Positions 3,049-37,056 of a stretch of 64,000 bases of DNA are shown here, in pieces. Location: the NCBI GenBank assembly GCA_963704675.1, contig OY969928.1, positions 631,539 through 695,538 on the forward strand, read 5' to 3'. A model generated the notes under the pieces. The model saw nothing but the letters and a program-made list of their open reading frames with translations, was not told where the DNA came from and searched no databases. The translations under genes and the position numbers were made by a program. Position 1 is the stretch's first letter, and every line of letters starts with the position of its first letter. The DNA is from an uncultured Candidatus Saccharibacteria bacterium. GTDB taxonomy: Bacteria; Patescibacteriota; Saccharimonadia; Saccharimonadales; Saccharimonadaceae.

Positions 3049-3053
3049 ACAAT

Positions 3054-3540: not shown

Positions 3541-3578
3541 AAGTTAAATACCAACCCTTGCAGGTTGGTATTTAACTT
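3541..3578. terminator. perfect 16-bp hairpin immediately downstream of tRNA-Arg
   Basis: aagttaaataccaacc / ggttggtatttaactt with a 6-nt loop. It abuts the tRNA 3' end. Confidence 0.5.
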
Positions 3579-3654
3579 GGTACCCCGGGTAGGACTCGAA
3601 CCTACAACCTCTTCCTTAGGACGGAACTGCTCTATCCAATTGAGCTACCGAGGC
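3578..3654 (-). tRNA. tRNA-Arg (anticodon CCU), CCA encoded
   Basis: The reverse complement folds as a cloverleaf: acceptor GCCTCGG/CCGGGGT, D arm GCTC..GAGC, anticodon loop GT-CCT-AA, T arm GTAGG-TTCGAGT-CCTAC, then ACCA. Confidence 0.85.
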
Positions 3655-3713
3655 AAAATGGGTGATGCAATTGCATCACCCATAGTGTACGATAGATTTT
3701 CAATTACAGCGAG

Positions 3714-4244: not shown

Positions 4245-4337
4245 GTTCTTCCTTATTAATACTTAGGTTTTATACATTGTATCAGAAATAAACGACTGTA
4301 GATATTGTCAAAGTGTTAAAAAGGTTATAATAAAATT

Positions 4338-9282: not shown

Positions 9283-9308
9283 TGCCCGTTTCTTTATTTA
9301 CAAAGATA

Positions 9309-9782
9309 CTAATTATTATTACTCTGGCAGGTAAATTGGCCTTGCTCTACATAAACCGCTGCAGCCACACTTCGGCTACCAGTAGCGTCATCAATGTCCC
9401 CATCACCACATTTAGCGTTTTGGTAATAGAATAGCTGGCCAACTTCAGCTGGAACAACTGTCTTATTGTTTTGATATGTTACGTTATAAGTTGAACCGGT
9501 AGAAGGGTCATTAAAAGTTTGACCGCCGTTTGTTAAGTAGCCTGAAACGAAACTACCAAGTGTTGTGGTGCTATTTGGAACGGCACCGTTTCTATTACTA
9601 CTGTAATTTGTGAGCTGGCTCATAAAACGAGAGAGATCTTGTTTACGCTGAGTATCGCGTTGTGATCGTTGTAAAGCTGGCAACGCCAAAAAGACAATCA
9701 AGAAGATTAGCCCGGCAATTGCTAACACGAGCACGACCTCGATCAGCGTAAAGCCCTTTTTCTGTTGTAACGTTGTGTTCAT
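9309..9782 (-). CDS. pilA: type IV major pilin
   Basis: MNTTLQQKKGFTLIEVVLVLAIAGLIFLIVFLALP (G|FTLIE). 157 aa with a C-terminal Cys pair. Confidence 0.8.
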   Translation of the reverse strand: MNTTLQQKKGFTLIEVVLVLAIAGLIFLIVFLALPALQRSQRDTQRKQDLSRFMSQLTNYSSNRNGAVPNSTTTLGSFVSGYLTNGGQTFNDPSTGSTYNVTYQNNKTVVPAEVGQLFYYQNAKCGDGDIDDATGSRSVAAAVYVEQGQFTCQSNNN

Positions 9783-9826
9783 ACCACCCTTCCTCTGTTG
9801 TTTGGAATGCTTATGTTTATAATCTG

Positions 9827-9854
9827 ATTATAGTGATATTTGCAGCTTTCGCAA
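9827..9854 (-). promoter_or_regulatory. candidate sigma70-type promoter for pilA
   Basis: On the minus strand the pattern is TTGCGA, a 16-nt spacer, then TATAAT, located upstream of pilA. Confidence 0.4.
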
Positions 9855-9869
9855 GCGCTTCCCATAGCT

Positions 9870-11084
9870 CTATGTAATGGTTCCGCCGTTAATAAGACCG
9901 TATACTGGTAATAGAATAGCCGCTACAAGACCACCGGCCACAATTGCTAGCACAACCATTAAAACCGGTTCGATAGCAGTTGAAAGTGAGCGAACAGTAT
10001 TTTCAAGTTCATTCTCATAAAAAGTTGCGGCTTTACCCATCATTTTATCAATACCGCCAGATTGTTCACCAATACTAATCATTTGTGGCACAAGTGAAGC
10101 AATCATGTTTTCGTTCTTCAAAGCTGACGAGAGCGATTTGCCACCACGAACTTTTTCGGCTGCACGGTTAATCGCATTAGTAACCAGCACGTTATTGGCA
10201 GATTTTGAAGAGATTTCGAGCATTTGCAGCATCGGTACACCGGATGAGAGTAGTGTTTCAGCCGTGCGGGTAAACCGCGCCATATAGAGTTTTTCGAGCA
10301 GTGGCCCCACGAGTGGTAAGCGTAGTTTAAAGGTATCCCAAGCGCGTCGGCCATTATTGGTAGCGATATAGCGACGCAAGAAATATATAGCCGCAACAAT
10401 AAGAATAAGAATAAGCCACCAGAAACGTCCAATGAAATTGGCCGTACTAACCATAACTTGAGTAATAAATGGCAATTCTTGGCGCAGATCTTTAAACAAG
10501 CGCTCAATCTGTGGCACAACGGTGGTAAGCATGAAAACGATCACACCAACAATCACCACCATAACGATAGCCGGATACACCATGGCACCGCGAACCTTAC
10601 TGAGCAGTTCAGCATCCTTTTCTTGTTGGTCGGCAATGCGCTCTAACGACTTATCGAGGGTACCAGAAACTTCACCGGCAGCAATTAGTGCAACGTAAAC
10701 TTCATTAAAAACGTCTTTGTGCCGGCGAAAAGCATCAGCTAAGGTACTGCCACCTTCGATAGTGGTAATTACATCAAGGACAACACTTTTCAATTTTTTA
10801 TTATCAGTCTGTTCAGCAACGCTCCGAAGCGCTTGGGCAAGCGGCAAGCCAGCATTAATAAGCGTTGAAAGCTGGCGGGTAAAGATGACTCGATCTTTAG
10901 TACTCACTCGATTACGAAGCCGGCCAAGCAGACTTTCACTTTCATTTAGTTCTTTGATATCAAGCGGCACAATACCCTGAGCCATTAAGAGCTTAGCGGC
11001 AGCCCGCTCTGATTCGGCCTGAACTGCTGATTTAACAATCTTATTGCTAGCAATATCGCGGGCAGTGTAGGTAAAGGTTATCAT
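9870..11084 (-). CDS. pilC: type IV pilus platform protein (GspF/PilC family)
   Basis: 404 aa with two T2SSF repeats and three TM segments. Confidence 0.9.
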   Translation of the reverse strand: MITFTYTARDIASNKIVKSAVQAESERAAAKLLMAQGIVPLDIKELNESESLLGRLRNRVSTKDRVIFTRQLSTLINAGLPLAQALRSVAEQTDNKKLKSVVLDVITTIEGGSTLADAFRRHKDVFNEVYVALIAAGEVSGTLDKSLERIADQQEKDAELLSKVRGAMVYPAIVMVVIVGVIVFMLTTVVPQIERLFKDLRQELPFITQVMVSTANFIGRFWWLILILIVAAIYFLRRYIATNNGRRAWDTFKLRLPLVGPLLEKLYMARFTRTAETLLSSGVPMLQMLEISSKSANNVLVTNAINRAAEKVRGGKSLSSALKNENMIASLVPQMISIGEQSGGIDKMMGKAATFYENELENTVRSLSTAIEPVLMVVLAIVAGGLVAAILLPVYGLINGGTIT

Positions 11085-11086
11085 GC

Positions 11087-12160
11087 CTAACCTCGTATCA
11101 TCCTATCAAATTCAGTAGTATCAACCGCGTAGTTACGAGCTTCATCATAGGTAATCGTGCCCGACTGCACCAAGTTAACAAGCGTTTTATCCATAGACTG
11201 CATACCGAGGTCAGCACCGGTTTGAATAACGGCATCGAGTTGATGGCTTTTACCTTCGCGAATAATATTACGAACAGCGGGGTTCGCTACTAAAATCTCT
11301 GCCGCCACCACACGACCACCGCCAATGACCGGAATTAAGCGTTGCGATACGATTGATTGCAAAATATTAGCCAATTGTGAACGAATTTGTGGTTGCTGAT
11401 GCGGCGGAAAGACATCAATCATACGATCAATCGACTGCGAAGCAGAGTTAGTATGAAGCGTTGCAAACACAAGGTGACCGGTCTCGGCAATCGTAATAGC
11501 AGCGGAAATAGTCTCAAGGTCACGCATTTCACCGATTAATACAACATCCGGGTCCTGGCGCAAGCTTGAACGAAGAGCCGCTGAAAACGAATAAGTATCA
11601 TAATGTACTTCACGTTGCACCACAACCGACTTTTTTGATTTATGCGTAAATTCAATTGGATCTTCAATAGTAATAATATGATGCGCTTTAGTGTCGTTAA
11701 TTTGATCAACTATCGCCGCAAGGGTGGTTGACTTACCCGAGCCAGTTGGACCAGTAACAAGCACGAGACCACGCGGGAAATTCGCAAATGTACTGACTAT
11801 TTGGGGCATACCTAATTCTGCCACGCTCTTGATCTCATTGGGAATCAAGCGAAGAGCTGCCGCCAAATTACCGCGCTCGTGAAAGGCATTAACACGGAAA
11901 CGGCCGAGATCGCCAAAGGCAAAGCTAAAGTCAAATTCTTTATCTTTTAAAAGGATTTGTTTTTGATCTTCGTCGAGAATTGAAAATACTAACTGCTCAA
12001 CGGTTTCTTCATTCAAGGCTTCATAACCAGGTACCGGTACCAAAGCACCGTCAATTCTGAGCATTGGCGGTAAGCTAATTTGTAAATGAAGATCACTCGC
12101 TCGTTTACGAATAACTTCTTCGAGTAACAGTTCAATTCTGAGTTCTTGTGTATCGCTCAT
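11087..12160 (-). CDS. pilT: twitching-motility retraction ATPase
   Basis: Walker A GPTGSGKSTT, the AIRNIIREGK-like motif (AVRNIIREGK), and a 357-aa size typical of PilT. Confidence 0.9.
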   Translation of the reverse strand: MSDTQELRIELLLEEVIRKRASDLHLQISLPPMLRIDGALVPVPGYEALNEETVEQLVFSILDEDQKQILLKDKEFDFSFAFGDLGRFRVNAFHERGNLAAALRLIPNEIKSVAELGMPQIVSTFANFPRGLVLVTGPTGSGKSTTLAAIVDQINDTKAHHIITIEDPIEFTHKSKKSVVVQREVHYDTYSFSAALRSSLRQDPDVVLIGEMRDLETISAAITIAETGHLVFATLHTNSASQSIDRMIDVFPPHQQPQIRSQLANILQSIVSQRLIPVIGGGRVVAAEILVANPAVRNIIREGKSHQLDAVIQTGADLGMQSMDKTLVNLVQSGTITYDEARNYAVDTTEFDRMIRG

Positions 12161-12173
12161 TCCCCACCTTTCA

Positions 12174-13949
12174 CTACGCCATATTTGCCGCCACGCGGTT
12201 TACTTCATCAAGTGTCGTAAGACCTTGCAGTGCCTTGAGATATCCGTCGCGACGCATGGTAATCATGCCTTCTTCAACCGCTTTTTTCTGAATCTCAGCA
12301 CTAGTTGCACGCTTTACGATAAGGTTTTGGATGTTTTCAGTTATATCCATTACTTCATAGAGACCCATGCGACCCTTGAAACCCCTGGGGGTAGCTGGCG
12401 TATCCTTCCCCTTCACTAAAGTATAAGCTTTTTGGCCACTGAGCGGCAAGTCTTTATAACCTAAGTCTTCAGAAACTTTGGCGACTGATGCTTTATCTTT
12501 CGGTAATATATCGCCAAGTGTTTCATGGATAGTCTGAGTCTCAAGCGGGTTAGACTGATAGGTTTCGCGTTCCTCGCCTACTCGACGCACTAAACGTTGA
12601 CCAATGACGGTATTGACAGTGCTGGCAATTAAGAAAGGTTCAATGCCCATGTCGAGCAATCGTGGAAGCACTCCAGCCGCTGAGTTAGTATGAAGTGTCG
12701 AGAATACTAGGTGACCCGTTAGAGCGGCTTGCACGGCCAAGTTAGCGGTTTCACGATCACGAATCTCACCCACCATAATAACATTCGGGTCTTGGCGAAG
12801 AATTGAACGAAGACCATTTGCAAATGTCAGCCCAACTTCAGTATTAACCTGAATTTGGTTAACCCCTGATATTTTATATTCAACAGGGTCTTCAAGCGTA
12901 ACAATATTAATTTCATCGCTCTTAATCTCTTGAATGAGCGCATAAAGGCTGGTTGACTTACCAGAACCAGTTGGGCCAGAAGTAAGCACCATGCCATTCG
13001 GCTTGCGGATACCCTTACGAACCATGCGGAGCGCCCGGCCAGCATATCCCATATCTTCAAGCCTAAAGTTGGTGCCAGTCTTATCCAGCAGACGAATAAC
13101 AACTTGCTCACCCCACACCACTGGGCTGATAGCGATACGAAGGTCGATATCGCTCCCGGCAACATGCACTGTAAATTGTCCATCCTGAGGAATGCGATGC
13201 TCGTCAATTTTGAGATTCGAGAGAATTTTTACGCGTGAGATAAGAGCCGGCTCGATACTTTTTGGCAACTTCATAATCTCACGTAGCACGCCATCAACAC
13301 GAGCACGGATCTTCAAGGCATCCTCAAGTGGCTCAATATGAATGTCTGAGGCACGAGAACGGGCGGCGTATTCTAAAATTGTACTGAGTGCTCGGCTAAT
13401 TGGTGAATCTTGCACGATCGTTTTAATATCGGCATTTTGACGATCCTTTTCTTGCTTGGCGCCCTCTTCAGCAGAGCTAATAGCAGCGCTTACTCCCTGC
13501 TGAAGATCAGTATGGTACTGATCGAGTACGTGATTAATACCTTCCTCTGAAGCCATGTAAACTTTCAGCGGTCTTGCGATACGATTCGAAAGGTAATCAA
13601 CCGCCTGAACATTATTAGCATCAAGCATAGCCACTGCAAGACGATTCTGCACTTCACCAAGCGGTACAGCCATAAAGTGTTCTGCCACATCTCTTGGAAG
13701 CAGCCGAAGTACTGACTGATCAATATTCGCCTCAAGCAGATTCACATAGGGTACGCCCGAAACAGATGCCATCAAGCGAGTTAAAGCCTCGTTACCTACT
13801 AGCTTATGTTCAACGAGGTAGCTAATGAGAGGCTTGTTCTCTTTTTCGGCCTCTTTTTTATATTTCGCCAGATCCTCTTTAGTAATGACTCTCTCTTCAA
13901 CTAAGAGAATTTCGAGCTTTTTTTGACTGTCATCAGTTAGCAAACCCAT
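12174..13949 (-). CDS. pilB: type IV pilus assembly ATPase (GspE/PilB family)
   Basis: N-terminal T2SSE_N domain, Walker A GPTGSGKSTS, and Asp/His boxes. Confidence 0.9.
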   Translation of the reverse strand: MGLLTDDSQKKLEILLVEERVITKEDLAKYKKEAEKENKPLISYLVEHKLVGNEALTRLMASVSGVPYVNLLEANIDQSVLRLLPRDVAEHFMAVPLGEVQNRLAVAMLDANNVQAVDYLSNRIARPLKVYMASEEGINHVLDQYHTDLQQGVSAAISSAEEGAKQEKDRQNADIKTIVQDSPISRALSTILEYAARSRASDIHIEPLEDALKIRARVDGVLREIMKLPKSIEPALISRVKILSNLKIDEHRIPQDGQFTVHVAGSDIDLRIAISPVVWGEQVVIRLLDKTGTNFRLEDMGYAGRALRMVRKGIRKPNGMVLTSGPTGSGKSTSLYALIQEIKSDEINIVTLEDPVEYKISGVNQIQVNTEVGLTFANGLRSILRQDPNVIMVGEIRDRETANLAVQAALTGHLVFSTLHTNSAAGVLPRLLDMGIEPFLIASTVNTVIGQRLVRRVGEERETYQSNPLETQTIHETLGDILPKDKASVAKVSEDLGYKDLPLSGQKAYTLVKGKDTPATPRGFKGRMGLYEVMDITENIQNLIVKRATSAEIQKKAVEEGMITMRRDGYLKALQGLTTLDEVNRVAANMA

Positions 13950-13964
13950 ATATGCTAACTCATC

Positions 13965-14207
13965 CTACTGATCAAATGGTTGTTGATTTGCTGGATTACC
14001 AATTTCAATCACTACAGTTGGATCGATTGCTTGGTCGTTAAAAATCTTTTTGCTTGGTTCTGGTAATTCTGCCGAGATTGGCTCAACGACTTCAACTGTT
14101 TGGCGCTGACTACCAGGCTGACCAATTATTGCACTTAATGCAAAATAAGATACTAAAAGTGTCACTGAAACAATCAAAACGATGATTGCTATGTCGTTTT
14201 TTTTCAT
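13965..14207 (-). CDS. small single-pass membrane protein in the pilus operon
   Basis: 80 aa with one TM helix. It sits between the pilO-like gene and pilB. Confidence 0.4.
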   Translation of the reverse strand: MKKNDIAIIVLIVSVTLLVSYFALSAIIGQPGSQRQTVEVVEPISAELPEPSKKIFNDQAIDPTVVIEIGNPANQQPFDQ

Positions 14208-14845
14208 GACTTGACGACCTCTTTCTTTATCTCAACACCTTTAGCTGGTTGCCAGTAAGCCGTTATATCGAGTGCCAAGCGAGTATTCTTATCTGAGCCA
14301 GTCACGTTCATTGTATTAATAGTAATGGGCCGAATAACCCGTTCTAAATCGCGCACAAAGGCTAGAACTTGTTCATAGCTACCGCTTACAGTAATACTCG
14401 CATTGATAGGCTGTGGGCCACTAGCTTCATCAGATGGCTCTACGTCTTCTGCTTGGCTCTCGATCGACACACTTTCAAGCGTTACACCTGAAAGTGGTGT
14501 AATGACCTGCTGAATTGAAGTACCGAATGCACTTGTATCTTTTTCGCGAGGCAAGGCATTCAAAATCTTAGTTGAGCTCACGTTTTTATCGGTTCCTGCG
14601 TCAAGTGGCCCAAAGGCTTCTTTAAGCTTCACGATATTATTTTGATTTTCGGCTAAGGTGCTTGCGGCTTTAGATTTAGCGCTATATACATTGTTGTTAT
14701 ATAAAAATTGCTTATATAAGAATTGAGCCGCAACAAGCAAAATCGAGATTGCAATTGAAGCAATTGCGACCCAGGCAAACATTGTACGATTAGCACTACT
14801 AATTGCTTGGCGTTTCTTAAGACCAGTTGCACGTTTCAGTTCCAT
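14204..14845 (-). CDS. PilO-like pilus assembly protein
   Basis: 213 aa with a single TM followed by coiled coil. It follows pilN with overlapping stop and start. Confidence 0.5.
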   Translation of the reverse strand: MELKRATGLKKRQAISSANRTMFAWVAIASIAISILLVAAQFLYKQFLYNNNVYSAKSKAASTLAENQNNIVKLKEAFGPLDAGTDKNVSSTKILNALPREKDTSAFGTSIQQVITPLSGVTLESVSIESQAEDVEPSDEASGPQPINASITVSGSYEQVLAFVRDLERVIRPITINTMNVTGSDKNTRLALDITAYWQPAKGVEIKKEVVKS

Positions 14846-15576
14846 TAGTCATCTCCTTGGTCGCCTGAAGGATTGGCATTTTCGTCAAATATTGTATTGG
14901 CGCGCGATGGTGCACCAGTAATCGATTGTGTCGTTTGAATATTAGGTATATTTAATTTTACATCTTCAATGTTAGGATCAAATGCAAACTCGTTATAAGT
15001 TGCACGAACAATAAAACCTAACTCCTGCCTGCCTTGATTACGAGTAAGATTTTGGCTTTCAATTACAACACTATCAAACAGTTTGCCCGTCTGTTCTTCA
15101 TCATCTTCTTTATAAGTAAGCTCGGCATTAACAAGTGTGTCTTTAAAAATAGTGAAAGCTTGGAAATTACCAGCCACGCCATTAAACACAATTTCTTTAT
15201 TCTCTTGATCTGTTTGCAAACTTGAAAGCCGAATATTATTGGGTGGTGCTGGGTTTAAAACCTTAAGATATTCAAAAAGCCGTGAATATATGACTTTTTG
15301 ATCGTATAATTCTGGCAGTGCAATGAGTTGATTTTGAATAGTAAGGTATTTATCAATATCTTCTACCGACTTTAGGTCTTCTGTGCGTGTGTCAATTTCA
15401 GTTTGCTTACTAGCAATAAGTAGTGGCTGCCCCGCATAAACAGTCAGGAACAAGAAGACTGTCAAGCCAACTGCGCCTAGTGTGACTAAAATTGAAATAC
15501 CGATGACAGTCGTTTTTGTCCGCTGCGCCTGCAGAAACTCTTTTTTTACATCTGGTAGGAGATTTAACTGAATCAT
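14845..15576 (-). CDS. PilN-like pilus assembly protein
   Basis: N-terminal MIQLNLLPDVKKE (INLLP motif) followed by a TM helix. Confidence 0.6.
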   Translation of the reverse strand: MIQLNLLPDVKKEFLQAQRTKTTVIGISILVTLGAVGLTVFLFLTVYAGQPLLIASKQTEIDTRTEDLKSVEDIDKYLTIQNQLIALPELYDQKVIYSRLFEYLKVLNPAPPNNIRLSSLQTDQENKEIVFNGVAGNFQAFTIFKDTLVNAELTYKEDDEEQTGKLFDSVVIESQNLTRNQGRQELGFIVRATYNEFAFDPNIEDVKLNIPNIQTTQSITGAPSRANTIFDENANPSGDQGDD

Positions 15577-16610
15577 GCCGCTCTCTCCGCCAGACCAACA
15601 GCTACAGCGAATCTAGGTGCTAGCTGAAGCAGCGTTTGTTGATCGCCGCCAGCACGCACTCTTTGCCAGGGATTACCCGCCACTACCTGCAATCCGGTTT
15701 TGGTACTGACAAAATCATTAAATGCTGGCACCGAAACACCGTAACCCGTTAAAACAGCATTTTGAATAGGGAGGCTTGGATATCGTGTTTGAAAGAACTT
15801 TATCGTTTTTGTTAACTCTAAAACAAATTGCTCTAAAGTTGGTTCAAGCGATTTATAAATTTGACCCTCAAGCCTATCAGGATAAAGACCAAACTTCAGA
15901 ATAAATTGCATCGCCTGGTTCTGGTCAATACTAAGGTTTTGCTGAGCTGCTTTTACAAGTGTTTGCATGCCAGTTGGCAACGAACGCACAAGTCGGGGCG
16001 TATCACCAACAACCGCTACAATATCAGTTGAGAAATCTCCAAGATCAACAATTAATAAACCGTTTTGATTATCTTCAGGAGTAAGAGAACGCACAAGCGC
16101 TAATGGATCAGGCTCTAATGCAATAACATTGAGCCCCAAACCTTCAATAAGATCAAGGCGATCTTCGCTAAATTTATTAGCAACACTGGCGAGCAGTACT
16201 TCAATTTTATTCTCGTCTCTCAGTGATTTGCCCAAGACCGCCCAATCTATTTTTGCTTCTTCAATAGACATTGGAATATATTGCTCAGCTTGATATTTAA
16301 TTGTACTGGCTAATTCTTGTGGCGGTACATCTGGTAGATCAACAACTGTTACGAATGTTTTATTCGAAGGAACACCTACCACAACGTTTTTCGAAGTAAT
16401 ACCCGTTTGAGCAATAAGGTTCGTAATAACCTCACCTAATCGTTTTCGATCTTCGGGTGAGTCACTTGTAGCAACTTTCATATCAACAGGAGCTGAACCA
16501 TATCGAGCTAAGACCCAAGATCCTGGTGTACCTTTAAGTTCAATCGCTCGTACAGCGGTTGTGCCGATATCAAGTGCGAAGAAGTCGCCCACCGATTGAA
16601 ATAACTTCAT
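15573..16610 (-). CDS. pilM: type IV pilus assembly ATPase-like protein PilM (actin fold)
   Basis: 345 aa. ALDIGTTAVRAIEL and further actin-like phosphate motifs. It lies upstream of pilN. Confidence 0.8.
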   Translation of the reverse strand: MKLFQSVGDFFALDIGTTAVRAIELKGTPGSWVLARYGSAPVDMKVATSDSPEDRKRLGEVITNLIAQTGITSKNVVVGVPSNKTFVTVVDLPDVPPQELASTIKYQAEQYIPMSIEEAKIDWAVLGKSLRDENKIEVLLASVANKFSEDRLDLIEGLGLNVIALEPDPLALVRSLTPEDNQNGLLIVDLGDFSTDIVAVVGDTPRLVRSLPTGMQTLVKAAQQNLSIDQNQAMQFILKFGLYPDRLEGQIYKSLEPTLEQFVLELTKTIKFFQTRYPSLPIQNAVLTGYGVSVPAFNDFVSTKTGLQVVAGNPWQRVRAGGDQQTLLQLAPRFAVAVGLAERAA

Positions 16611-28683: not shown

Positions 28684-28698
28684 AGTTCCTCCTATGGA

Positions 28699-28716
28699 TC
28701 CTGCTCACACGCAGGA
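28699..28716 (-). promoter_or_regulatory. hairpin in the rpsF 5' UTR (possible S6:S18 autoregulatory leader)
   Basis: tcctgc-tcacac-gcagga lies between the candidate promoter and the rpsF RBS. The family assignment is speculative. Confidence 0.25.
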
Positions 28717-28752
28717 GCGCTTTTTGTTAGCGCAGGTTAATTTACAGGTGTA

Positions 28753-28781
28753 ATTGTATCATGATCCTACCGTTTTTACAA
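28753..28781 (-). promoter_or_regulatory. candidate promoter of the rpsF-ssb-rpsR operon
   Basis: Minus strand: TTGTAA, a 17-nt spacer, then TACAAT. Confidence 0.45.
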
Positions 28782-28874
28782 TTCTGGCAGCTTACAACCT
28801 CAATCCACTAATCAGAAGAAATACTGTTGTAATTTTAGGGTTTACTCATAAAATTTATTTGCTATACTGCTTAT

Positions 28875-29056
28875 GTCTACACTTAGTCTTGTGCTGAGAA
28901 TTTGTTAGCTATTTTCTCTATTCTTTATCCACTGGCCGAAATGGGTAGCGATTAATAATGCAGTGGATAACCCTGCTAGGTGTAGACACCTTGCAATCGC
29001 TACCCTCACGGATAACTAATAACACAACACACGATAGAGTATCGGTGTTTTTATTT
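28875..29056 (+). promoter_or_regulatory. structured leader: three nested/pseudoknotted perfect stems plus a weak hairpin with T-run, upstream of the tail-fibre-like operon
   Basis: Stem A is 28875-86/28976-87 (12 bp, one G-U). Stem B is 28925-34/28961-70 (10 bp). Stem C is 28943-53/28995-29005 (11 bp). These are followed by acacgat..atcggtgt and ttttattt. Confidence 0.4.
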
Positions 29057-29077
29057 GACGCAAAAAAATGGAGGAAT

Positions 29078-29704
29078 ATGTCAAGACTACCAATACCCGG
29101 CGCAGACTTTGGAGACTGGGGAGAAATATTAAATGACTTTTTAAAACGCGAGCATACATCAGACGGTGCTTTAAAGATACGTGCTGACGGAACATTAAGT
29201 GGTTTATATAAAAAACCATCAAGCGGCATACCCGAAAACGATCTTGATAGCATTATTCAAAACAAACTGAACACCACTCTGCCCGCATCTACAAGCAGCC
29301 TTGGGGGGATTCAACTATCTGGTGATCTTGCAGGAAGCGCCACTACACCTGTTGTGCCGGCACTTAATACTAAGGCAGATATTGTCGAAGCTGTGAATAT
29401 CATAACTACTAGTAATAGTACCTTGACACTCCCAGATGTAACAACCGCTACCGTTCACGACGTTACACTTACTACCGATCTTATCATTACGCTGCCGACC
29501 CCTAGTGCCGGTAAAAGCTTGACACTTATCGTACGCCAAGATAGCAGTGGAGGACATAGTATTACTTGGCCTCCGGCGGTGAAATGGCCAAGCGGCATCC
29601 CAATGGAATTAACACCTACCGCAAATGCTATTGATGTTATCACATTTCTAGGGTTAAGTTCATCAGCGTGGCTTGGTTTTCAATCAGGATACGATCTACG
29701 ATGA
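29078..29704 (+). CDS. phage tail-fibre/receptor-binding-like protein
   Basis: The start MSRLPIPGADFGDWGEILNDFLKREHTSDGALK follows a GGAGG RBS. In my memory the N-terminal D-x-WG-x-ILN-x-FL..H..DG motif resembles actinophage minor tail proteins. The track ORF start at 28958 is less likely. Confidence 0.5.
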   Translation: MSRLPIPGADFGDWGEILNDFLKREHTSDGALKIRADGTLSGLYKKPSSGIPENDLDSIIQNKLNTTLPASTSSLGGIQLSGDLAGSATTPVVPALNTKADIVEAVNIITTSNSTLTLPDVTTATVHDVTLTTDLIITLPTPSAGKSLTLIVRQDSSGGHSITWPPAVKWPSGIPMELTPTANAIDVITFLGLSSSAWLGFQSGYDLR

Positions 29705-30873
29705 AAGCTGCTGTACGCATGAAGCAGCCGAGTTCAGTGCAGCAAGACTTAGTGATCCGTCGTGTCACCAACGAGCTCGCAATCTTTGGCCAGTGGTTAA
29801 ACAGAAATAACGTTAGAGGAGTTATCTCTGAAATTGGATGGCCTAACAACGCTTATCCTCAACTTTGGAATAATGTCGCTAAAGCATGGTATAGAGAAGC
29901 AAATAAATGGCACCTGCCCGTCCTTGCCTTTACCGCACAAGGCCCTGGCACGAATGTAGCGCAACTCACTATGTACAGCAGGAGTAATGGATCTGTTAGC
30001 GGCGGGCAATCTATAGATAAAGCAAATCAGCAGGCAAAAGTGAGCGAAGCATTTCAAACTACACCAGAATACTGGAGAGGCATTGATATATTCGGCGGTG
30101 CTGCCAACGATGGTGGCGGAGATGGTAACCCCTCTATCATGAATAATGTGCAGCAAAACACCTGGTGGTATGAAACGCCCGGCACATATACCTATTTAGC
30201 GAGTAGAGGTTATAAGGTTGCTCGTATAGGATTTCGATGGGAACGACTCCAACCAACACTAGGAGCTGCTCTCGACACTACAGAGGTAAACCGACTGCAG
30301 AATACTATTTCAAATGCTCAAAACGCTGGCATGCAGGTAGTGCTCGATCTACATAACTATAGTCGCTACGTGACTCCTAGTGGAGTCACTATACTTGGCA
30401 CAGCTCAACTACCGATAAGCGCCTTCATTGACGTATGGAGCCGCATTGCCACCACTTTTCAATCAAATACGGGTGTACTTGCCTACTCATTAATGAACGA
30501 GCCACATGATATGCCTCGAACGCCTCTGGGAGAGCCCTCTGCTAAGCACTGGGAGGCAGCGGCCCAATCAGCAGTCAATACAATTCGCCAAGCTGGAGAT
30601 ACTCACGAAATTCATGTTTCAGTTTATGAATGGGGGCGTGCACAAAACACTCCTCTTCACCATGCCACTGCATGGATCGTAGATCCAGCTAGCAATATAC
30701 GCTACGAAGCCCATCATTATCTCTACTTGCATCACGCTACGGCCATTAATTACCCAGATAGCTTCCAAACAGAGCTGCAAGATGCAAGTGGTATCTGGAC
30801 ACAAGAGATGACTCCAGGAAAACAGTGGGCCAATTACGCCAATTTAACATGGAATCAACTAATAGGAGCTTAG
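29701..30873 (+). CDS. glycoside hydrolase family 5 (cellulase-like)
   Basis: Acid/base region VLAYSLMNEPHD (NEP) and nucleophile region VSVYEWG. There is an ATGA overlap with the upstream stop. Confidence 0.65.
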   Translation: MKAAVRMKQPSSVQQDLVIRRVTNELAIFGQWLNRNNVRGVISEIGWPNNAYPQLWNNVAKAWYREANKWHLPVLAFTAQGPGTNVAQLTMYSRSNGSVSGGQSIDKANQQAKVSEAFQTTPEYWRGIDIFGGAANDGGGDGNPSIMNNVQQNTWWYETPGTYTYLASRGYKVARIGFRWERLQPTLGAALDTTEVNRLQNTISNAQNAGMQVVLDLHNYSRYVTPSGVTILGTAQLPISAFIDVWSRIATTFQSNTGVLAYSLMNEPHDMPRTPLGEPSAKHWEAAAQSAVNTIRQAGDTHEIHVSVYEWGRAQNTPLHHATAWIVDPASNIRYEAHHYLYLHHATAINYPDSFQTELQDASGIWTQEMTPGKQWANYANLTWNQLIGA

Positions 30874-30877
30874 AAAT

Positions 30878-31522
30878 ATGGCAACCTTTACACCAAACCT
30901 CGAATTAAAACAACATAACCCCAACGATCCTATTGACCCCGTTGATGCCTTTGCAAGTAACTTCGGTAAGATATCTGGGCTATATCAAGACGGCAATTCA
31001 ATATCAAATGGCATTTCGACATGTGACCGACGATTTGCAGATGGAACTATTACCCCGATCTCGGGCGAAATATACTTTTCTTATTTTACCTCGCCTCGAG
31101 GTAGCTTGAGCGGCGGCATTGTTTCTAAAATCGAATTAAGAACTGGTTCCCAGATTGCCAGTGGAGTAACCCTTGCACGTATTGGGCTTTATACTGTCAA
31201 TTCCGGTGATCAAGCATTAGCTCTCGTTGCCAGTACCGCAAATGAAACCAGCGGCTGGACAACTACTTTCACTGGTGTTGTTAAAAATCTTTCTGCTACC
31301 TATACGCTACAAGTTGGCAAACGCTATGCTCTAGGGGTTCTATTTGTGGCAACAACACCACCCAGCTACGTCCGCTACAAATGTAGCACCGATTTCGCTC
31401 TCAATGCTGTTCCCCCTCGCTTATGCGGCAAATTAGCCAGTCAATCTGACCTGCCTACCAACATCGCAGATAATATACTTGCGACAACTAGCGGAGGAGG
31501 CTTTGTTAGCCTTTTGCCATAA
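30878..31522 (+). CDS. hypothetical protein with phage tail-fibre-like N-terminus
   Basis: MATFTPNLELKQHNPNDPIDPVDAFASNFGKI resembles the TPNLGL..P...D......N...ID motif seen at N-termini of tail-fibre-type proteins. This is from memory. Confidence 0.4.
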   Translation: MATFTPNLELKQHNPNDPIDPVDAFASNFGKISGLYQDGNSISNGISTCDRRFADGTITPISGEIYFSYFTSPRGSLSGGIVSKIELRTGSQIASGVTLARIGLYTVNSGDQALALVASTANETSGWTTTFTGVVKNLSATYTLQVGKRYALGVLFVATTPPSYVRYKCSTDFALNAVPPRLCGKLASQSDLPTNIADNILATTSGGGFVSLLP

Positions 31523-31584: not shown

Positions 31585-31712
31585 GTAAGGAGCTTATAGA
31601 AGGCCAGCCCGAACAGGGCTGCTTTTTATGGGTGAAGGCGCTCTCGCTCAAAAAGCTAGGGGCCGCCTTTACAATTTGAAGTGTAGACAACGTTCTTTGA
31701 AAGGACTTCGTT

Positions 31713-34355
31713 TTGACGTCCCAGCAAGCCCCTGAGTATAGCGGCAAGAAGCGCAAGCTTCTGTTCGCTGCCGTGGGAATAACTGTAATGTTGCTCAGCT
31801 TTGTCGAGCTTTACGTCATGATCAGCATTTTCGGCATGGAAGCGTGGCTAGCCTACGCTATTCAGACAGTGCTGAGCGTGGAGCTCAACTTCGCGGGCAA
31901 CTGGATTCTCACTTTCCGTGACCGGAGACGCGAGAACAGCATCTGGAAGTCTTTACTGCTGTTTCACGCGACGCGAGTGTTCACCATCCCGTTCAACCAG
32001 GTCCTCTTCACCCTCCAGGTGTCGTGGGTACCGGTGTGGGAGTGGACAATCACAGCACCGTGGCCCATCAATCTCCTCGGAGAAAGCGGTCCGATCCTCA
32101 TTGCGCAAGCGGTGTGTATCGTCGCTACGACTGTTCTCAATTACGTCGCCGGTGACAAGCTGGCGTTCGGAGGAAAGTGGGCAAAAAAAGACTCAGCGCC
32201 GACGACATCACCGTTGCCGGCGCCAGAGTTGCCTGACAACCTTCCTTTCGTCAGCATCGTCATACCTGTTAAGAGCTCAGTGCCAACAGATACCCTGGAG
32301 GCACTTTGTCAGCAAACCTACCCCGGAGGCAACTTCGAGGTCATTGTGGTTGGCGACCTGGGCAGTCCAAGCCTTGCATCCATCAGGGAGCTGGACGTTC
32401 CATTCACTCTACAGGTACTCGAAGTTCAGGTTCGTACGCCGCGGCGTGATTCAAACGCCAAACGCGGGCGTGGTCTGAAAAAGGCGATCGGTGACATATT
32501 GGTCGTCATTGACGGTGACGTACTCCCTCGAAAGGAGTGGCTCTCACGAGTCGTCTCGCATCTTACCGTTGGCGGCCACCAGGCAGTCGCCGGCCCGCTC
32601 AGCGGGCACGGTGACTCTTGGTGGAATCGATACATCGACCACAATCGCATAGCCAGCAAAACACCTCGCATGACGACCGCTTATGAGGTCAACGGGTCAA
32701 ATACGCATCGCCGTAAGTTGCCCGTAACGGCTAATTTCGCGTGCCGCCGTGAGGTCTTCGAAAAAGTTGGCGGTCCGGATACTCGCTTCACCAATTCGTA
32801 CGAGGATTATTCGTGGTTCGAAACAATTGTGCAAAATGGCATAACCATTTACTGTGACCCGACGCTGGAAACCCCACGTCATCACCGAAGTGGGCTGTGG
32901 TCACTTCTCGACGAGTACAAGCGTTCAGGCATGGGCTGTGCTGACTTCATCGTCGCCTTCCCTTCCTCGCGCTTCGCTCGGAAACGAATTGTCCAGATCG
33001 TTTGCACAGCCGGTATCAGTATCGGCACCTTGGTGTGTGCATGGCTTAACCCCCTGCTGCTCACCGCGTTCGGTCCGTTCCTGGTACTAATCATGCTAGC
33101 CAACTGGGTCAACACAAAACGCACAGCAAGTCTCGCCTACCCGTTCGTGACCCTACTGCTTGCGAGCAGATTCCTACAAGGAGTATTCTCGCGCTTCCTG
33201 CGACAAGGCTTCCGTCACCCCACGGATTCCTATGTTGTTGAGGAACGATCATCGTTCACTGCCGGAGAAGCAGGCTGGCCATCAGTGAGCGTCGTAGTGC
33301 CCGTCAAGGATCGCCCTGGAACCATCCGCTCATTGGTTAACTCCTTGCTCGCCCAAGAATACAAGGGCGACATAGAGATTATCCTCGTGGGCGATGTGGG
33401 TGATACCACCTGGAATCCCATTCGATCCCTGATCGAGAAAGGGAAGATACGAGCCATAGAGGCTGATGTCGAATCCGCTGGACGTGATGCAAACGCCAAG
33501 CGTAATGTTGGTCTCACGGCTGCTAAGGGCGAGGTACTGATTCTCACCGACAGCGACATGGTTCTACCAAGTCACTGGCTTGAGAAGGGTGTCACGCTCA
33601 TGCGTCGGTCTGGCCACAAGATCGTGGCGGGGTCGATGCGAAGCGTAGAGGCAGCCGTCGAGAGCTCTTCGAGTTTTTGGGGGATGTACACCGATCTCAA
33701 TCCATTCGGAAGTAAAACCCCACGGATGGATCCAGCGTACGTCATTACGCCGCATAACCTCGGAAGGGGGAAAGAAAAGCCACCAATTACCGCGAGTATG
33801 TTCTTCGCACGCGAAGTGCTAGAAGCAACTGGCGGTCTCGATGCAAACTTTACCTCTCCGTACGAGGATTACCCCTTCGCCGATCAGATTATCGACGCAG
33901 GCTACTCGATCCTCTGCACGGATGAGCTGTCCGCCTACCACTACCATCGCGACGGCCTAAAGTCTCTCACCAAAGAGTACCTTCAGGCTGGTATCGGCTG
34001 TGCGGATTACATCCGCACATATCGCACCTCCCGATTTGCTGCAAAGCGTCTCGGGCAAGCGTTCGCGATGACTCTGTTCTTCATGACTGGCATTACGGCA
34101 ATGTGGCTGCTGCCCTTGGCAACAACGGCGGCTAGCTTCATCGGTATCACAGCGCTGGCTGGACTCAGCTGGCAGAAAACGAAACGCCCCATCGCGGCAA
34201 TCTTTCCGATCATCACAACTTACCTCGGCACTGTCTTCTACGTAGGGATAGTGACGGGAGCTGTAAGACGGTTTTGGTCAACCCAACCCGATACCCACAT
34301 CGTTGGAATACGGGAGATAACCGCAACGTTGGCACTGGAGGAAGACCATGTCTAA
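31713..34355 (+). CDS. fusion protein: GtrA-like N-terminal domain plus two tandem (GT2 glycosyltransferase + TM bundle) modules
   Basis: 880 aa with a TTG start. GtrA-like ..VLSVELNFAGNWILTFRDRR. GT2 module 1 is FVSIVIPVKS..VIDGDVLP. GT2 module 2 is VSVVVPVKDR..LTDSDMVLP. Each module is followed by GSKTPRM..YEDY..GCADF/Y..SRFA.KR and TM helices. Confidence 0.7.
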   Translation: MTSQQAPEYSGKKRKLLFAAVGITVMLLSFVELYVMISIFGMEAWLAYAIQTVLSVELNFAGNWILTFRDRRRENSIWKSLLLFHATRVFTIPFNQVLFTLQVSWVPVWEWTITAPWPINLLGESGPILIAQAVCIVATTVLNYVAGDKLAFGGKWAKKDSAPTTSPLPAPELPDNLPFVSIVIPVKSSVPTDTLEALCQQTYPGGNFEVIVVGDLGSPSLASIRELDVPFTLQVLEVQVRTPRRDSNAKRGRGLKKAIGDILVVIDGDVLPRKEWLSRVVSHLTVGGHQAVAGPLSGHGDSWWNRYIDHNRIASKTPRMTTAYEVNGSNTHRRKLPVTANFACRREVFEKVGGPDTRFTNSYEDYSWFETIVQNGITIYCDPTLETPRHHRSGLWSLLDEYKRSGMGCADFIVAFPSSRFARKRIVQIVCTAGISIGTLVCAWLNPLLLTAFGPFLVLIMLANWVNTKRTASLAYPFVTLLLASRFLQGVFSRFLRQGFRHPTDSYVVEERSSFTAGEAGWPSVSVVVPVKDRPGTIRSLVNSLLAQEYKGDIEIILVGDVGDTTWNPIRSLIEKGKIRAIEADVESAGRDANAKRNVGLTAAKGEVLILTDSDMVLPSHWLEKGVTLMRRSGHKIVAGSMRSVEAAVESSSSFWGMYTDLNPFGSKTPRMDPAYVITPHNLGRGKEKPPITASMFFAREVLEATGGLDANFTSPYEDYPFADQIIDAGYSILCTDELSAYHYHRDGLKSLTKEYLQAGIGCADYIRTYRTSRFAAKRLGQAFAMTLFFMTGITAMWLLPLATTAASFIGITALAGLSWQKTKRPIAAIFPIITTYLGTVFYVGIVTGAVRRFWSTQPDTHIVGIREITATLALEEDHV

Positions 34356-35832
34356 TATCAGACACCGCCACGCAGCAACCGTGGTAGGCAGTAAGGCGTT
34401 CTTACTCATCGGAGCAGTCATTGTCGTGCTCGGCGCTGCGCTCCGCTTCATCAACCTGTCCACTTGGCCGGGGGTGGAGTGGGACGAGAACGTCTACCGA
34501 GTAGTCGGTGAGCACGTCGCCCAGGCCGGTGACATCACCGCCAAAACCGAATACCTGGCCGCCGCTGAGCCGTACCTCTATCACCCGCCGTTCCACTTCG
34601 TGGTACTGGGCGGATGGTTCGAGATCTTTGGTTCATCGCTCCTGGCAGCTCGGGCACTTGCCGTTGTGGCATCTCTTGTCATGATGGTGGTGCTCAGTTA
34701 CTTCCTACGCTGGATGATCGGCAACTGGGCACTCCTGGCCGTCGGTCTCATCACCGTCGACGTGTGGATGATCTTCTCGAACCGCGTCTCGTGGATCGAG
34801 AACATCATGATCCCCGTGGGGATCATTGGCCTGTGGCTGTACCGTCGGGGCAGCGAGAAACATTCTTCTCGACTGTTCATCGCGGCCGGGATCGTACTTG
34901 GTCTGGCCGTCGCCTACAAGCACATCGGGCTCATTTTCCCGCTGGCTGTGGGCATCTGTTGGCTGCTCATGCGCAGACTTCACAACCTGCACGTGAAACT
35001 GTTCGCTGCTTTCGCGGCAACAAGTGGCCTCTACGTGGCTGCAATGGCACTGATCTTCGGCAAGGTGTACTTCGAGCAATCCGGCATCCAGTTCTTCCGT
35101 AGCACTGGAAGTCGCGAGTCTCGGGGTGCGCTCAACCTGAGCAACGTCATCACGCCGCTCGTCGATCAGTATGCCGTCTTCGTTGCAACCATGGTACTCG
35201 CGCTGGCGGCCGTGGTCCTGCTCCTGGTGCGCACTGCTCGAATCATCCAGCAGCGTAGCCTGGTCAGCCTGCAGCAGCACACGCTACTGTATGCTTGGGC
35301 AATGGCAGCACTGCTGTTCTTCCTGGTCCTCCAACTCCGTTTTCCCCACTACTTCATGCTCATGCTCATCCCACTGTTCTGCTATCTCGTCGCCGAGATC
35401 AAGTGGTTCAGCGAGAAGAGGCGTGCCAACGGCTCCAACCCCGCAGAGATGCGCAGGGTGATCGCGATCTGCGCCGTACTGGCGCTCGCGTTGAATGTCA
35501 ACGCCTTCATCCAGCGCTTCGTTACTCAAACCAGTGACGATGCGTTGACGGCAACGGCGAACTGGATGTCAGCAAACGCGCCGGCAGACGCCAAGGTTAT
35601 CACCGAAGAATCTGTCGGCTCCACCATCGGACAGCCTTACTGCAAGATCTGGAAGGGTGACGGCTGCGTCGGCGCCGAGTACGTGATTGTCTACACTTCG
35701 CACACGCAGAAGATCCCGGATAACCCCGGTCTTCGCCGCCTGATCGCCTCCGCTGGGTCCCCCGTCTTCACGACGCGGGGCTACAAGGAGATGATTACCG
35801 TGTACAAGCTGCCCTCTCCTGTGAGCGGCTAA
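34348..35832 (+). CDS. polytopic GT-C fold glycosyltransferase (PMT_2 / GT39 / ArnT-like)
   Basis: 494 aa with at least 10 TM segments. The first-loop acidic motif is EWDENVY (DE motif). It has a GGAGGA RBS and an 8-nt overlap with the upstream gene. Confidence 0.55.
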   Translation: MSNIRHRHAATVVGSKAFLLIGAVIVVLGAALRFINLSTWPGVEWDENVYRVVGEHVAQAGDITAKTEYLAAAEPYLYHPPFHFVVLGGWFEIFGSSLLAARALAVVASLVMMVVLSYFLRWMIGNWALLAVGLITVDVWMIFSNRVSWIENIMIPVGIIGLWLYRRGSEKHSSRLFIAAGIVLGLAVAYKHIGLIFPLAVGICWLLMRRLHNLHVKLFAAFAATSGLYVAAMALIFGKVYFEQSGIQFFRSTGSRESRGALNLSNVITPLVDQYAVFVATMVLALAAVVLLLVRTARIIQQRSLVSLQQHTLLYAWAMAALLFFLVLQLRFPHYFMLMLIPLFCYLVAEIKWFSEKRRANGSNPAEMRRVIAICAVLALALNVNAFIQRFVTQTSDDALTATANWMSANAPADAKVITEESVGSTIGQPYCKIWKGDGCVGAEYVIVYTSHTQKIPDNPGLRRLIASAGSPVFTTRGYKEMITVYKLPSPVSG

Positions 35833-35839
35833 CACGATC

Positions 35840-35885
35840 AAGGGCCCCGTGCGCATGCAATCAAATGCAAGCGTTCGGGGCCCTT
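35840..35885 (+). terminator. 10-bp perfect GC hairpin after the GT-C gene
   Basis: aagggccccg ... cggggccctt with a 26-nt loop. Confidence 0.4.
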
Positions 35886-35957
35886 TCAAATTGTATAACT
35901 TTAGCCGTTCTGGATTGGGTGTAATTTTCGAATAAAAAGTCTTCAGAAAAGCGCTCG

Positions 35958-35988
35958 CCTGGGGTCGTGGTTTGTCCACGACCCCAGG
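35958..35988 (-). terminator. 13-bp perfect GC hairpin after the Ppm1-like gene
   Basis: cctggggtcgtgg-tttgt-ccacgaccccagg, 12 nt past the stop codon. Confidence 0.6.
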
Positions 35989-36000
35989 CATTGACACCCT

Positions 36001-36774
36001 TTAGCTACTGGCGACCAGCGCACGCCTAGTAGCAAATCGCAACCGCAGCAATTGCCGCACGAATTTGAAGCCCGTGCGAATGTCGCTCTTTGTGTTACCG
36101 GCCGTTCGTTCACCGAACTGCATCGGTAGTTCCAGAATGCGCAGGCCGCGATGAGCACACAGCAGTTCGACCAAGATCTTGAATCCGTCAGACTTCAGAC
36201 GATCAATGTCAACAGCCGAACGACGAAATACGAAGTAACCGGTCATCGGATCGCTCACTTCGCCAAGCAGACGTGGGAACAATAACTTCGCCGCCAAGTT
36301 CGTGCCACGCGAAACAACGTGCCGCATGAACCCGTTCAACCCATCGGCACTGCCGCCACTGCGATAACGGCTCGTCGTGACTACGTCTACACACTCTGCT
36401 ATCTGGAATAGTAGCCTCGAGAGATAGGCGGGGTGTTGACCATCACCGTCAATGACACAAACGTATTCGTCAGTACTGCACATGCGAATACCGTGTACCA
36501 CCGCACCCGACAAGCCGTCGATGCGCTCCGCCCCCACCCGACGGAACCCCTCGACAACAAAACGCGACGTGCCAAACTCGGCAGCCGCGGTGGTAACAGC
36601 ATCTACCGTGGCAGTATTCTTGCTATCATCGATGACAAGCAGGCGAGTTACACCATCCAGCGGTGCCACCGCTTCTCTCAATAACTTCACCAGCAAGCTG
36701 ATGTTCTGGGCTTCATCGATTGTCGGCGCAATGATTGTACGTGTCGGAGCGTTGTGCTCGCGGACAGCAGACAT
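36001..36774 (-). CDS. polyprenol-phosphate glycosyltransferase (GT2; Ppm1/DPM1/GtrB-like)
   Basis: ..LLVIDDSKN..VCVIDGDGQHPP-like (DGDGQHPA)..SDPMTGYFVFRR..GFKILVELL..ERTAGNTK. The start at Met37 (36774) is preceded by GGAGG. Confidence 0.8.
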   Translation of the reverse strand: MSAVREHNAPTRTIIAPTIDEAQNISLLVKLLREAVAPLDGVTRLLVIDDSKNTATVDAVTTAAAEFGTSRFVVEGFRRVGAERIDGLSGAVVHGIRMCSTDEYVCVIDGDGQHPAYLSRLLFQIAECVDVVTTSRYRSGGSADGLNGFMRHVVSRGTNLAAKLLFPRLLGEVSDPMTGYFVFRRSAVDIDRLKSDGFKILVELLCAHRGLRILELPMQFGERTAGNTKSDIRTGFKFVRQLLRLRFATRRALVASS

Positions 36775-37056
36775 CAATACCTCCAAGAGAGCTATGTACT
36801 CCATGCAGCATCTTGACCGCTTTTGCGGATGTCGTCCTACATTATACATTAAACTAAATATTTTGTAAACTAATATATGCAAAAATTATTTCTAAAAGAC
36901 CAAACATATAACGTATTGATCAGCGCCGCGCAGAAAAAGGCCACCTCTATACTTACAGCCAGTATTACTCACAAGGGGCATGATTAAGCGCAACGACTAT
37001 TACGACAACGAGAGTCATATTTACGCCTCAGATGGCACTAACTGGTGTATCGCTGG

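Follow-up and report, generated by a model that had tools for sequence, protein, structure and literature searches.

Bdellovibrio bacteriovorus, a bacterium living on other bacteria, owns MAT (mosaic adhesive trimer) fibres that are built from phage tail-fibre parts, with an N-terminal module that does not vary and C-terminal binding domains that do; the proteins start with a signal peptide, which is followed by a conserved beta-rich N-terminal domain of about 130 aa (Caulton et al. 2024, PMC10769870). These phage-derived fibres are the closest published analogue, functional only in its resemblance, of a three-gene operon that we describe here from a 64,000-nucleotide stretch of DNA (the window) of an uncultured Candidatus Saccharibacteria bacterium (assembly GCA_963704675.1, contig OY969928.1, positions 631,539 to 695,538). 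The three genes, to which we refer as the trio, encode a tail-fibre-like protein (gene 1), a glycoside hydrolase of family GH5 (gene 2) and a beta-sandwich protein that is probably lectin-like (gene 3).

Among phage systems, the tailspike and fibre depolymerases follow the same bind-and-cut logic, a fibre being paired with a polysaccharide hydrolase for passage through a layer of surface glycan, but in the trio the enzyme, a TIM barrel, has a gene of its own next to that of the fibre and is not a fused beta-helix. Actinophage tails (Bxb1, 9d93; Douge, 8zdp/8zdq) have tip domains that share the fold of gene 3 and fibres that share the knob or the N-terminal module of gene 1, and the same order of the three genes is found in phage tail regions. 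In contrast to these actinophage modules, the cassette in the window stands alone among core genes, has the composition of the host genome, and carries in gene 1 an N-terminal module other than that of the phage trio copies.

How ultrasmall epibiotic bacteria choose and breach their hosts is largely open, and to our knowledge type IV pilus adhesins are their only characterised host-binding factor; searches of the literature for tail fibres or minor tail proteins in Saccharibacteria or Patescibacteria found nothing relevant. We think it probable, albeit with substantial reservations, that the trio is a phage adsorption cassette – a fibre/adaptor, a glycan-cutting enzyme and a lectin-like protein – that has been captured and kept as an operon of the cell. 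A chromosomal phage bind-and-cut cassette kept by selection is a candidate for passing the host glycan layer, and one that is directly testable because sister copies sit in actinophage tails; the trio would, in addition, illustrate cleanly how a cell can put the adsorption hardware of a virus to new use.

The Trio in Phage Contigs

The trio consists of three open reading frames (ORFs), all on the + strand within positions 29078-31522. The original prediction had described them as tightly coupled, and direct reading of the sequence agrees, with an ATGA overlap of genes 1 and 2 at 29701-29704 and a gap of 4 nt (30874-30877) between genes 2 and 3. The order of knob-domain gene, GH5 gene and gene-3 homologue is repeated in at least six other contigs, indicating that the arrangement has not arisen by chance, and the 4-nt overlap between genes 1 and 2 recurs in four of these (L001, L003, L042 and L044).

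Several of the contigs are viral. Contig L002 (IMG/VR UViG 3300044840_000108), with a G+C content (GC) of 66%, carries the trio ∼7.9 kb downstream of a PhageMin_Tail tape-measure gene; the trio is preceded by a phrog_5313 protein (function unknown) and six further genes, and then comes a protein matching PHROG tail families. A 952-aa protein of the same tail region has no match in isolated phages by tblastn. The 48.7-kb contig L042/L043 (GC 61%) has a trio of 216, 386 and 214 aa, sizes like those in the window, and also encodes Lsr2, NlpC/P60, endolysin, holin, HNH and integrase proteins; part of the endolysin DNA is 67-72% identical to the endolysins of Microbacterium and Curtobacterium phages. 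This contig, with its Lsr2, holin, endolysin and integrase genes, is a temperate actinophage. L044/L045 carry the trio at a GC of 56%, gene 1 of L044 being a 115-aa knob alone. None of the isolated phages in INPHARED carries the GH5 clade to which gene 2 belongs.

A partial arrangement is present in L046 (positions 1-5323, GC 47%), where a GH5 protein of 414 aa and a gene-3 homologue of 214 aa are encoded together with a GT1 glycosyltransferase. Two further proteins of this contig are repetitive, one being collagen-like (Gly-X-Y) and the other having a repeat region rich in Thr, Gly and Ala.

Chromosomal Copies of the Trio

Two further chromosomal copies, in L001 (a 459-kb contig) and L003, stand at the same housekeeping locus as that of the window, as a check of synteny confirmed: in all three genomes the trio lies between an rpsF-ssb-rpsR(-efp) block and ftsK and beside a cassette of GtrA, GT2 and PMT_2 genes. 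The flanks in the window hold rpsF-ssb-rpsR-efp, the glycosyltransferase cassette, ftsK, RNase J, UDG and PNPase. No phage genes surround the L001 and L003 copies, and the statement of the original prediction that other phage genes are absent next to the window copy is borne out by a Pfam scan of 29 kb on each side, which covered a subset of the ORFs of at least 150 aa. No phage structural family was found among the scanned ORFs, which belong to housekeeping functions, a type IV pilus cluster and glycosyltransferases or, for about a dozen proteins, have no Pfam match. An intact prophage extending beyond the trio, which would have spoken against domestication, is likewise not seen within the 64-kb window, where there is no contiguous set of capsid, portal, terminase, tail-tube/tape-measure, lysis and integrase genes. 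Nor was a baseplate gene found among the scanned ORFs.

The three genomes are well diverged. Between the window and L001 the products of genes 1, 2 and 3 are 51, 60 and 61% identical, while the housekeeping proteins (EF-P, RpsF, RpsR, SSB, FtsK and RNase J) are 67-75% identical. Non-synonymous divergence (dN) of the trio is 0.25-0.44 and synonymous divergence (dS) is saturated or uncomputable, so that pairwise dN/dS ratios mostly cannot be computed and are used here qualitatively only. All nine trio ORFs of the three genomes are intact and nearly unchanged in length. The GC at third codon positions (GC3) of the trio is 0.33-0.41 in the window, 0.54-0.63 in L001 and 0.56-0.60 in L003, compared with 0.73-0.80 in the phages L002 and L042. 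The GH5 tree unites the three chromosomal copies in one clade (100/99), which stands next to those of the phages and within a clade of signal-less proteins (100/100); the gene-3 tree shows the chromosomal copies nested within those of the phages.

With GC3 now at the value of each host genome, with saturated synonymous sites and with the catalytic residues retained, the sequence data fit one old capture that was followed by vertical descent under purifying selection, rather than the debris of a prophage. The suggestion that the locus is a domesticated module is strongly supported by the complete phage counterparts, by the single chromosomal site in three diverged genomes, and by amelioration together with saturated dS.

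The neighbouring GtrA-GT2/PMT_2 cassette is rich in GC. In the window (31713-36882) it is on the + strand and follows the trio, and in L001 (3030-6163) and L003 (563-4690) it is on the - strand and upstream. Its proteins are 42-56% identical between genomes, as compared to 60-70% for the GH5 and gene-3 proteins, 50-51% for gene 1 and 67-75% for housekeeping proteins, and in the window its GC is 53-59%, the genome being at 46% and the trio at 45-47%. The cassette may have been re-acquired or replaced at the same spot.

Gene 1 Is a Mosaic Fibre Protein

Gene 1 is composed of an N-terminal module (aa 1-39), here called MSRLP, a DUF5907-type repeat region and a C-terminal knob. It matches the Pfam family DUF5907 (E 2.7e-7, above the family cut-off) and PHROG tail-fibre/minor-tail families, the best of which is 9017 (E 3e-10), with 7760 (E 5.6e-8) and 8780 also matching; the PF26209 (Phage_phiTE_241_C) assignment is a precomputed label only, and a PDB sequence search with gene 1 gave no match. 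Among isolated phages (tblastn), residues 1-66 share 46-51% identity with fibre proteins from BRock-like phages of Streptomyces, which are annotated as collagen-repeat or hypothetical proteins, and residues 143-207 match minor tail/tail-fibre proteins from viruses of Curtobacterium, Arthrobacter, Microcystis, Roseobacter, Salmonella and Halorubrum.

The homology between gene 1 and its equivalents in the phage trios L042, L002 and L044 is limited to the C-terminal knob of ∼106 aa (34-46% identity), the L002 equivalent additionally sharing a short DUF5907-type repeat (query 40-64). The first 39 residues of gene 1, MSRLPIPGADFGDWGEILNDFLKREHTSDGALKIRADGT, are missing from all three of these homologues, and alignment shows that, relative to the phage trio copies, the N-terminus of the fibre is replaced by the MSRLP module.

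This module is widespread. At E<=1e-3 the first 66 residues of gene 1 match 3464 representative clusters, a number that falls to 317 when E<=1e-10 is required, some of these matches stemming from the repeat part and not from the module; in most of the 150 matches listed the MSRLP module occupies residues 1-65, in proteins that range from 100 to more than 1200 aa. Examples include P0158, from a metagenome-assembled genome (MAG) that NCBI names Candidatus Saccharibacteria, and P0148, a pectate-lyase-like fragment. P0161 (346 aa, on a 191-kb contig) unites the MSRLP module with a beta-sandwich that resembles gene 3 (hhalign probability 92%, E 6e-7), and parts that are encoded separately in the trio can therefore be joined elsewhere.

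Other arrangements of the module were also encountered. At L062 (8001-9598, NCBI GCA_029288315.1) a 301-aa protein with an MxRLPxPG module, DUF5907 and a phiTE_241_C knob is followed by a 228-aa Laminin_G_3 protein, with no phage genes in view; the bacterium does not look like a member of the candidate phyla radiation (CPR), genes for a histidine kinase, ZnuABC, Fur and DinB being close by, and stand-alone pairs of fibre and lectin are therefore not confined to Saccharibacteria. The chromosomal locus L048 (8001-10760) has a 183-aa MSRLP-module protein directly followed by a signal-less 734-aa protein with an fn3 domain, and L047 (8001-9766), also chromosomal, has a 125-aa MSRLP-module protein directly followed by a signal-less 457-aa protein. 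L047 is from an NCBI-named Candidatus Saccharibacteria MAG and has a type IV secretion system (T4SS) coupling-protein gene nearby.

Gene 2 Is a Circularly Permuted GH5 Enzyme

Gene 2 matches the Pfam family Cellulase (PF00150, clan GH-A) with an E value of 8.3e-29 and 101 bits (cut-off 23.5) over profile positions 14-206 of 272. By profile and catalytic residues it fits GH5, but the canonical chain order from beta1 to beta8 is not what we find. Its alignment with Pseudomonas stutzeri Cel5A (4lx4) splits in two, with query residues 138-341 corresponding to chain residues 19-209 and query residues 28-92 to chain residues 236-297. The nucleophile strand is in the second piece, where SEIGWP of gene 2 is aligned to GEYGIP and E44 to the glutamate of GEYG. 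The residues E44, G46, W47 and P48 do not vary in the 21 homologues that were aligned, down to 32% identity, and in each of these they stand ahead of beta1. In the AlphaFold model (predicted local distance difference test score [pLDDT] 83, predicted template modelling score [pTM] 0.85) there are eight strands, with residues 40-45 as beta7, 74-79 as beta8, 126-130 as beta1 and so onward to 333-339 as beta6, an order assigned from the 4lx4 alignment and the motif positions. When residues 9-120 were transferred behind residue 365 and the Pfam and PDB searches were repeated, the Pfam match became a single stretch over 14-266 of 272 with 108 bits, and several PDB alignments were ∼50 residues longer. 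The split alignment, the invariant E44, W47 and P48 ahead of beta1, the strands of the model and the re-permuted matches together show that the barrel is circularly permuted, with all of its catalytic residues retained. A Foldseek search with gene 2 found only GH5 endo-beta-1,4-glucanases, each over ∼230-250 columns, and no solved structure with the permuted order; nor was any description of a circularly permuted GH5 found in the searched literature.

As a consequence of the permutation the nucleophile lies near the N-terminus, the predicted nucleophile being E44 in SEIGWP and the predicted acid/base E267 in LMNEPH (the NEP motif). The original prediction had taken LMNEPHD and YEWG as GH5 signatures. 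The former holds, with E267 and the Pfam match, but YEWG is rejected as the nucleophile motif, since E310 becomes N or D in more distant homologues. E44, N266, E267, R175, H218 and H338 are invariant in both of our GH5 alignments, and Y340 in one of them.

The closest solved relatives, at 26-32% identity, are RBcel1 (4ee9), Xanthomonas XacCel5A (4w7u/5hos), P. stutzeri Cel5A (4lx4) and Thermoascus Cel5A (TaCel5A, 1gzj), all of which we take to belong to GH5 subfamily 5 (GH5_5); judged by these nearest solved neighbours only, gene 2 is a putative GH5_5-like glucanase. It shares with the GH5 endo-beta-1,4-glucanases the Arg of beta2, the His of beta3, the Asn-Glu of beta4, the His/Tyr of beta6 and the Glu of beta7. 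Unlike the solved enzymes of this group it has the chain order beta7-beta8-beta1...beta6, and it lacks both a signal peptide and a carbohydrate-binding module (CBM).

The permuted order, with beta7 and beta8 before beta1, is common to all 21 aligned homologues and probably extends through much of a GH5 family that numbers several hundred members (P0040-P0146 are among the relatives) and includes secreted enzymes of Actinomycetota and Chloroflexota. Most of the 15 more distant aligned members have a hydrophobic N-terminal segment (a signal peptide or membrane anchor), and the source names of distant permuted GH5 proteins include Acidimicrobiales, Dactylosporangium, Homoserinimonas, Rhabdothermincola and Abditibacteriaceae. 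There are no signal peptides in the 11-member clade that includes gene 2. Several IMG/VR contigs (L050, L051, L058) carry a permuted GH5 for which the match begins near query residue 8-21, and a scan of 185,579 representative genomes with the alignment of the GH5 clade recovered only distant relatives (23-35% identity). The permuted GH5 bears on the evolution of TIM barrels and on CAZy annotation, because profile matches end at beta6 and the nucleophile is easily misassigned.

Gene 3 Is a Probable Lectin-Like Protein

Gene 3 has a short N-terminal segment that is kept in the phage trio copies, followed by a jelly-roll beta-sandwich at about aa 45-214 (structure model pLDDT 80, pTM 0.75). It has no sequence match in Pfam, NCBIfam or the PDB. 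In Foldseek searches of the PDB the model is matched best by a chain of the cyanophage A4 capsid asymmetric unit, and further by Douge gp20 (the central fibre) and the tail tip of Bxb1, with E values of 2e-7 to 6e-6 and template modelling (TM) scores of 0.55-0.62; for Douge gp20 and the Bxb1 tail tip the values are 5e-6 to 6e-6 and 0.57-0.62. At E<=1e-3 there are 86 viral models that match, chiefly minor tail proteins of Mycobacterium, Gordonia and Streptomyces phages, and by tblastn gene 3 matches the minor tail protein gp30 of Gordonia phage LonelyBoi (37.5% identity, E 2e-14). The protein is, as modelled, probably lectin-like. The proposal that both flanking genes of the GH5 resemble phage tail proteins has accordingly been sustained, for gene 1 through its PHROG, DUF5907 and tblastn matches and for gene 3 through its fold and the LonelyBoi match.

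More distant relatives of gene 3 are also found in phage structural regions; one precedes a beta-helix protein in L004, and 28 IMG/VR loci hold others. In two high-GC phage contigs (L005 7706-8305, L006 2877-3476) a 199-aa distant relative directly follows the major capsid gene. This position, together with the cyanophage A4 match, suggests that the gene-3 fold may additionally serve as a capsid decoration or fibre protein.

Possible Functions of the Trio

We propose that the cassette came from a tailed phage, of a type infecting Actinobacteria, and was captured by an ancestor of this soil lineage. The three proteins may assemble as one complex, in which the knob of gene 1 would act as an adaptor for the signal-less GH5 and gene 3, and the MSRLP module would serve to attach the whole to a partner in the cell. 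Such a complex could bind and cleave a beta-linked, glucan-type wall polysaccharide of another cell, which would most likely be that of an actinobacterial host, whose phages carry the sister copies. The bacterium itself probably lives attached to other bacteria, and the long intact retention of the trio argues that the cell probably uses the viral bind-and-cut tool itself. For a cultured Saccharibacterium it is reported that the pilus adhesin PilX1 has a peptidoglycan receptor which is masked by wall polysaccharide of the host cell (bioRxiv 10.64898/2026.10.06.756255), which would give a bind-and-cut tool an obvious use.

A more specific version of this proposal, which we put forward tentatively and regard as rather doubtful, is that an episymbiotic Saccharibacterium took the complete adsorption cassette from a phage infecting its own actinobacterial host, swapped the virion-docking end for a lineage-wide MSRLP handle, and uses the trio to recognise and cut the wall polysaccharide of that host. 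If this is true, phage receptor-binding hardware sets the host range of an epibiont, and the MSRLP handle is the mark of a mechanism, so far undescribed, by which such proteins are mounted on the cell independently of signal peptides.

Several observations weigh against a captured cassette that the cell uses on its neighbours. Secretion signals were among the checks suggested by the original prediction, and none of the three proteins, in any of the genomes, has a signal peptide or hydrophobic segment, so that there is no known route by which they would reach the surface. In this respect the trio also differs from the MAT fibres of Bdellovibrio, with which it further contrasts in having an unrelated module of ∼39 aa and an enzyme and a lectin encoded as separate genes; gene 1 lacks the hydrophobic N-terminus of the MAT family, and its N-terminal module is only ∼39 aa long. 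The trio always adjoins a glycosylation cassette, and its target could accordingly be a glycan of the cell itself. L046, which is basal in the GH5 tree yet grouped with the chromosomal copies in the gene-3 tree, and whose context fits either a phage or a cellular origin, somewhat blurs the direction of transfer in the GH5 tree. Finally, no RNA run contains the trio sequence, which is present only in soil DNA runs (three soil metagenome runs listed).

Of the alternatives, action of the trio on the cell's own envelope survives best, although we judge it to be unlikely. The GH5 would then be the cognate hydrolase of the glycan of the neighbouring GtrA-GT2/PMT_2 cassette, either in the manner of the endoglucanases of cellulose-synthase operons or as part of a phage-derived seroconversion-plus-tail remnant that controls phage adsorption or cell separation by remodelling the surface. 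The adjacency of trio and cassette in all three genomes, in spite of the differing side and orientation of the cassette, speaks for this reading, and there are other places where surface-modifying genes trail tail-type genes, such as the GT1 gene after the L046 pair and an O-acetyltransferase gene after the LonelyBoi minor tail gene; L001 in addition has an Acyl_transf_3/SGNH gene beside the trio. However, the known synthase-associated glucanases are exported, whereas the trio proteins have no signal peptides, and a fibre and a lectin are not expected as partners of a biosynthetic hydrolase. The window cassette, moreover, is richer in GC than the trio and its proteins are more diverged, differences in composition and divergence which suggest that the cassette and the trio have separate histories, and a terminator-like hairpin lies between the two.

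Still less probable, in our view, is that the trio serves a virus, being supplied to a resident prophage, satellite or tail-like particle encoded elsewhere, or being incorporated into the particles of infecting phages and mis-targeting their progeny as a form of defence. While the absence of signal peptides is normal in virion proteins, and fibres of Streptomyces BRock-like phages make use of the gene 1 N-terminal module as well, the PADLOC defence models gave no match for any of the three proteins and the scanned flanks contain no phage structural family. The site among core genes is also stable across three genomes that are 25-33% apart in their housekeeping proteins, and the composition is fully ameliorated.

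That the trio is merely the inert debris of a degraded prophage, without present function, seems highly improbable, for although all three families are of phage type, the nine ORFs are intact and of near-constant length, the proteins are still 50-70% identical where synonymous sites are saturated, the six residues E44, N266, E267, R175, H218 and H338 are invariant, and the 4-nt overlap is retained.

Sequence Features and Neighbouring Genes

The coordinates of the features are collected in Table 1. The start of gene 1 was set at 29078 because its orthologues begin at the same MARLP/MSRLP residue and a GGAGG precedes this position; an alternative start at ATG 28958 was rejected on the same grounds. 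A GGAG is present upstream of gene 3.

Table 1. Positions of the trio genes, their domains and candidate signals in the window.
Feature	Position	Strand	Remark
Gene 1, mosaic tail-fibre-like protein, 208 aa	29078..29704	+	begins MSRLPIPGADFGDWGEILNDFL
Gene 1 aa 1-66, N-terminal module and first DUF5907-like repeat	29078..29275	+	
Gene 1 aa 101-208, C-terminal knob	29378..29701	+	precomputed PF26209 Phage_phiTE_241_C
Gene 2, GH5 glycoside hydrolase, permuted (beta/alpha)8 barrel, 390 aa	29701..30873	+	
Gene 2 aa 12-120, transposed C-terminal quarter of the canonical barrel	29734..30060	+	helix, beta7, alpha7, beta8
Gene 2 codon of the predicted nucleophile E44	29830-29832	+	in beta7
Gene 2 aa 121-345, barrel beta1 to beta6	30061..30735	+	with R175, H218, N266-E267, H338, Y340
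Gene 2 codons N266-E267	30496-30501	+	E267 predicted acid/base
Gene 3, jelly-roll beta-sandwich protein, 214 aa	30878..31522	+	begins MATFTPNLELKQHNPNDPIDPVD
Promoter-like site TTTACT-16-TATACT with TG, in the rpsF/gene 1 spacer	28841..28868	+	suggestive only
Terminator-like GC hairpin and T-run, between gene 3 and the GtrA-GT2 gene	31605..31621	+	consensus match only

Promoter-like and terminator-like sites are no more numerous in this region than in shuffled sequence. The terminator-like hairpin, if it acts as such, would make the trio a separate transcription unit. Gene 1 and the divergent rpsF (- strand) are separated by a non-coding spacer of 394 nt (28684-29077); no Rfam family was matched in this leader or in the operon. 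Just beyond the start codon of rpsF there are hairpins on the + strand at 28699-28733.

Two other features of the window may be mentioned. The sole recombinase in the scanned flanks is a Xer-type tyrosine recombinase at 4338-5243, 24 kb from the trio, and the type IV pilus cluster (8425-16610), 12-20 kb upstream of the trio, encodes a prepilin peptidase, a PilC-like protein, two T2SSE ATPases and PilM.

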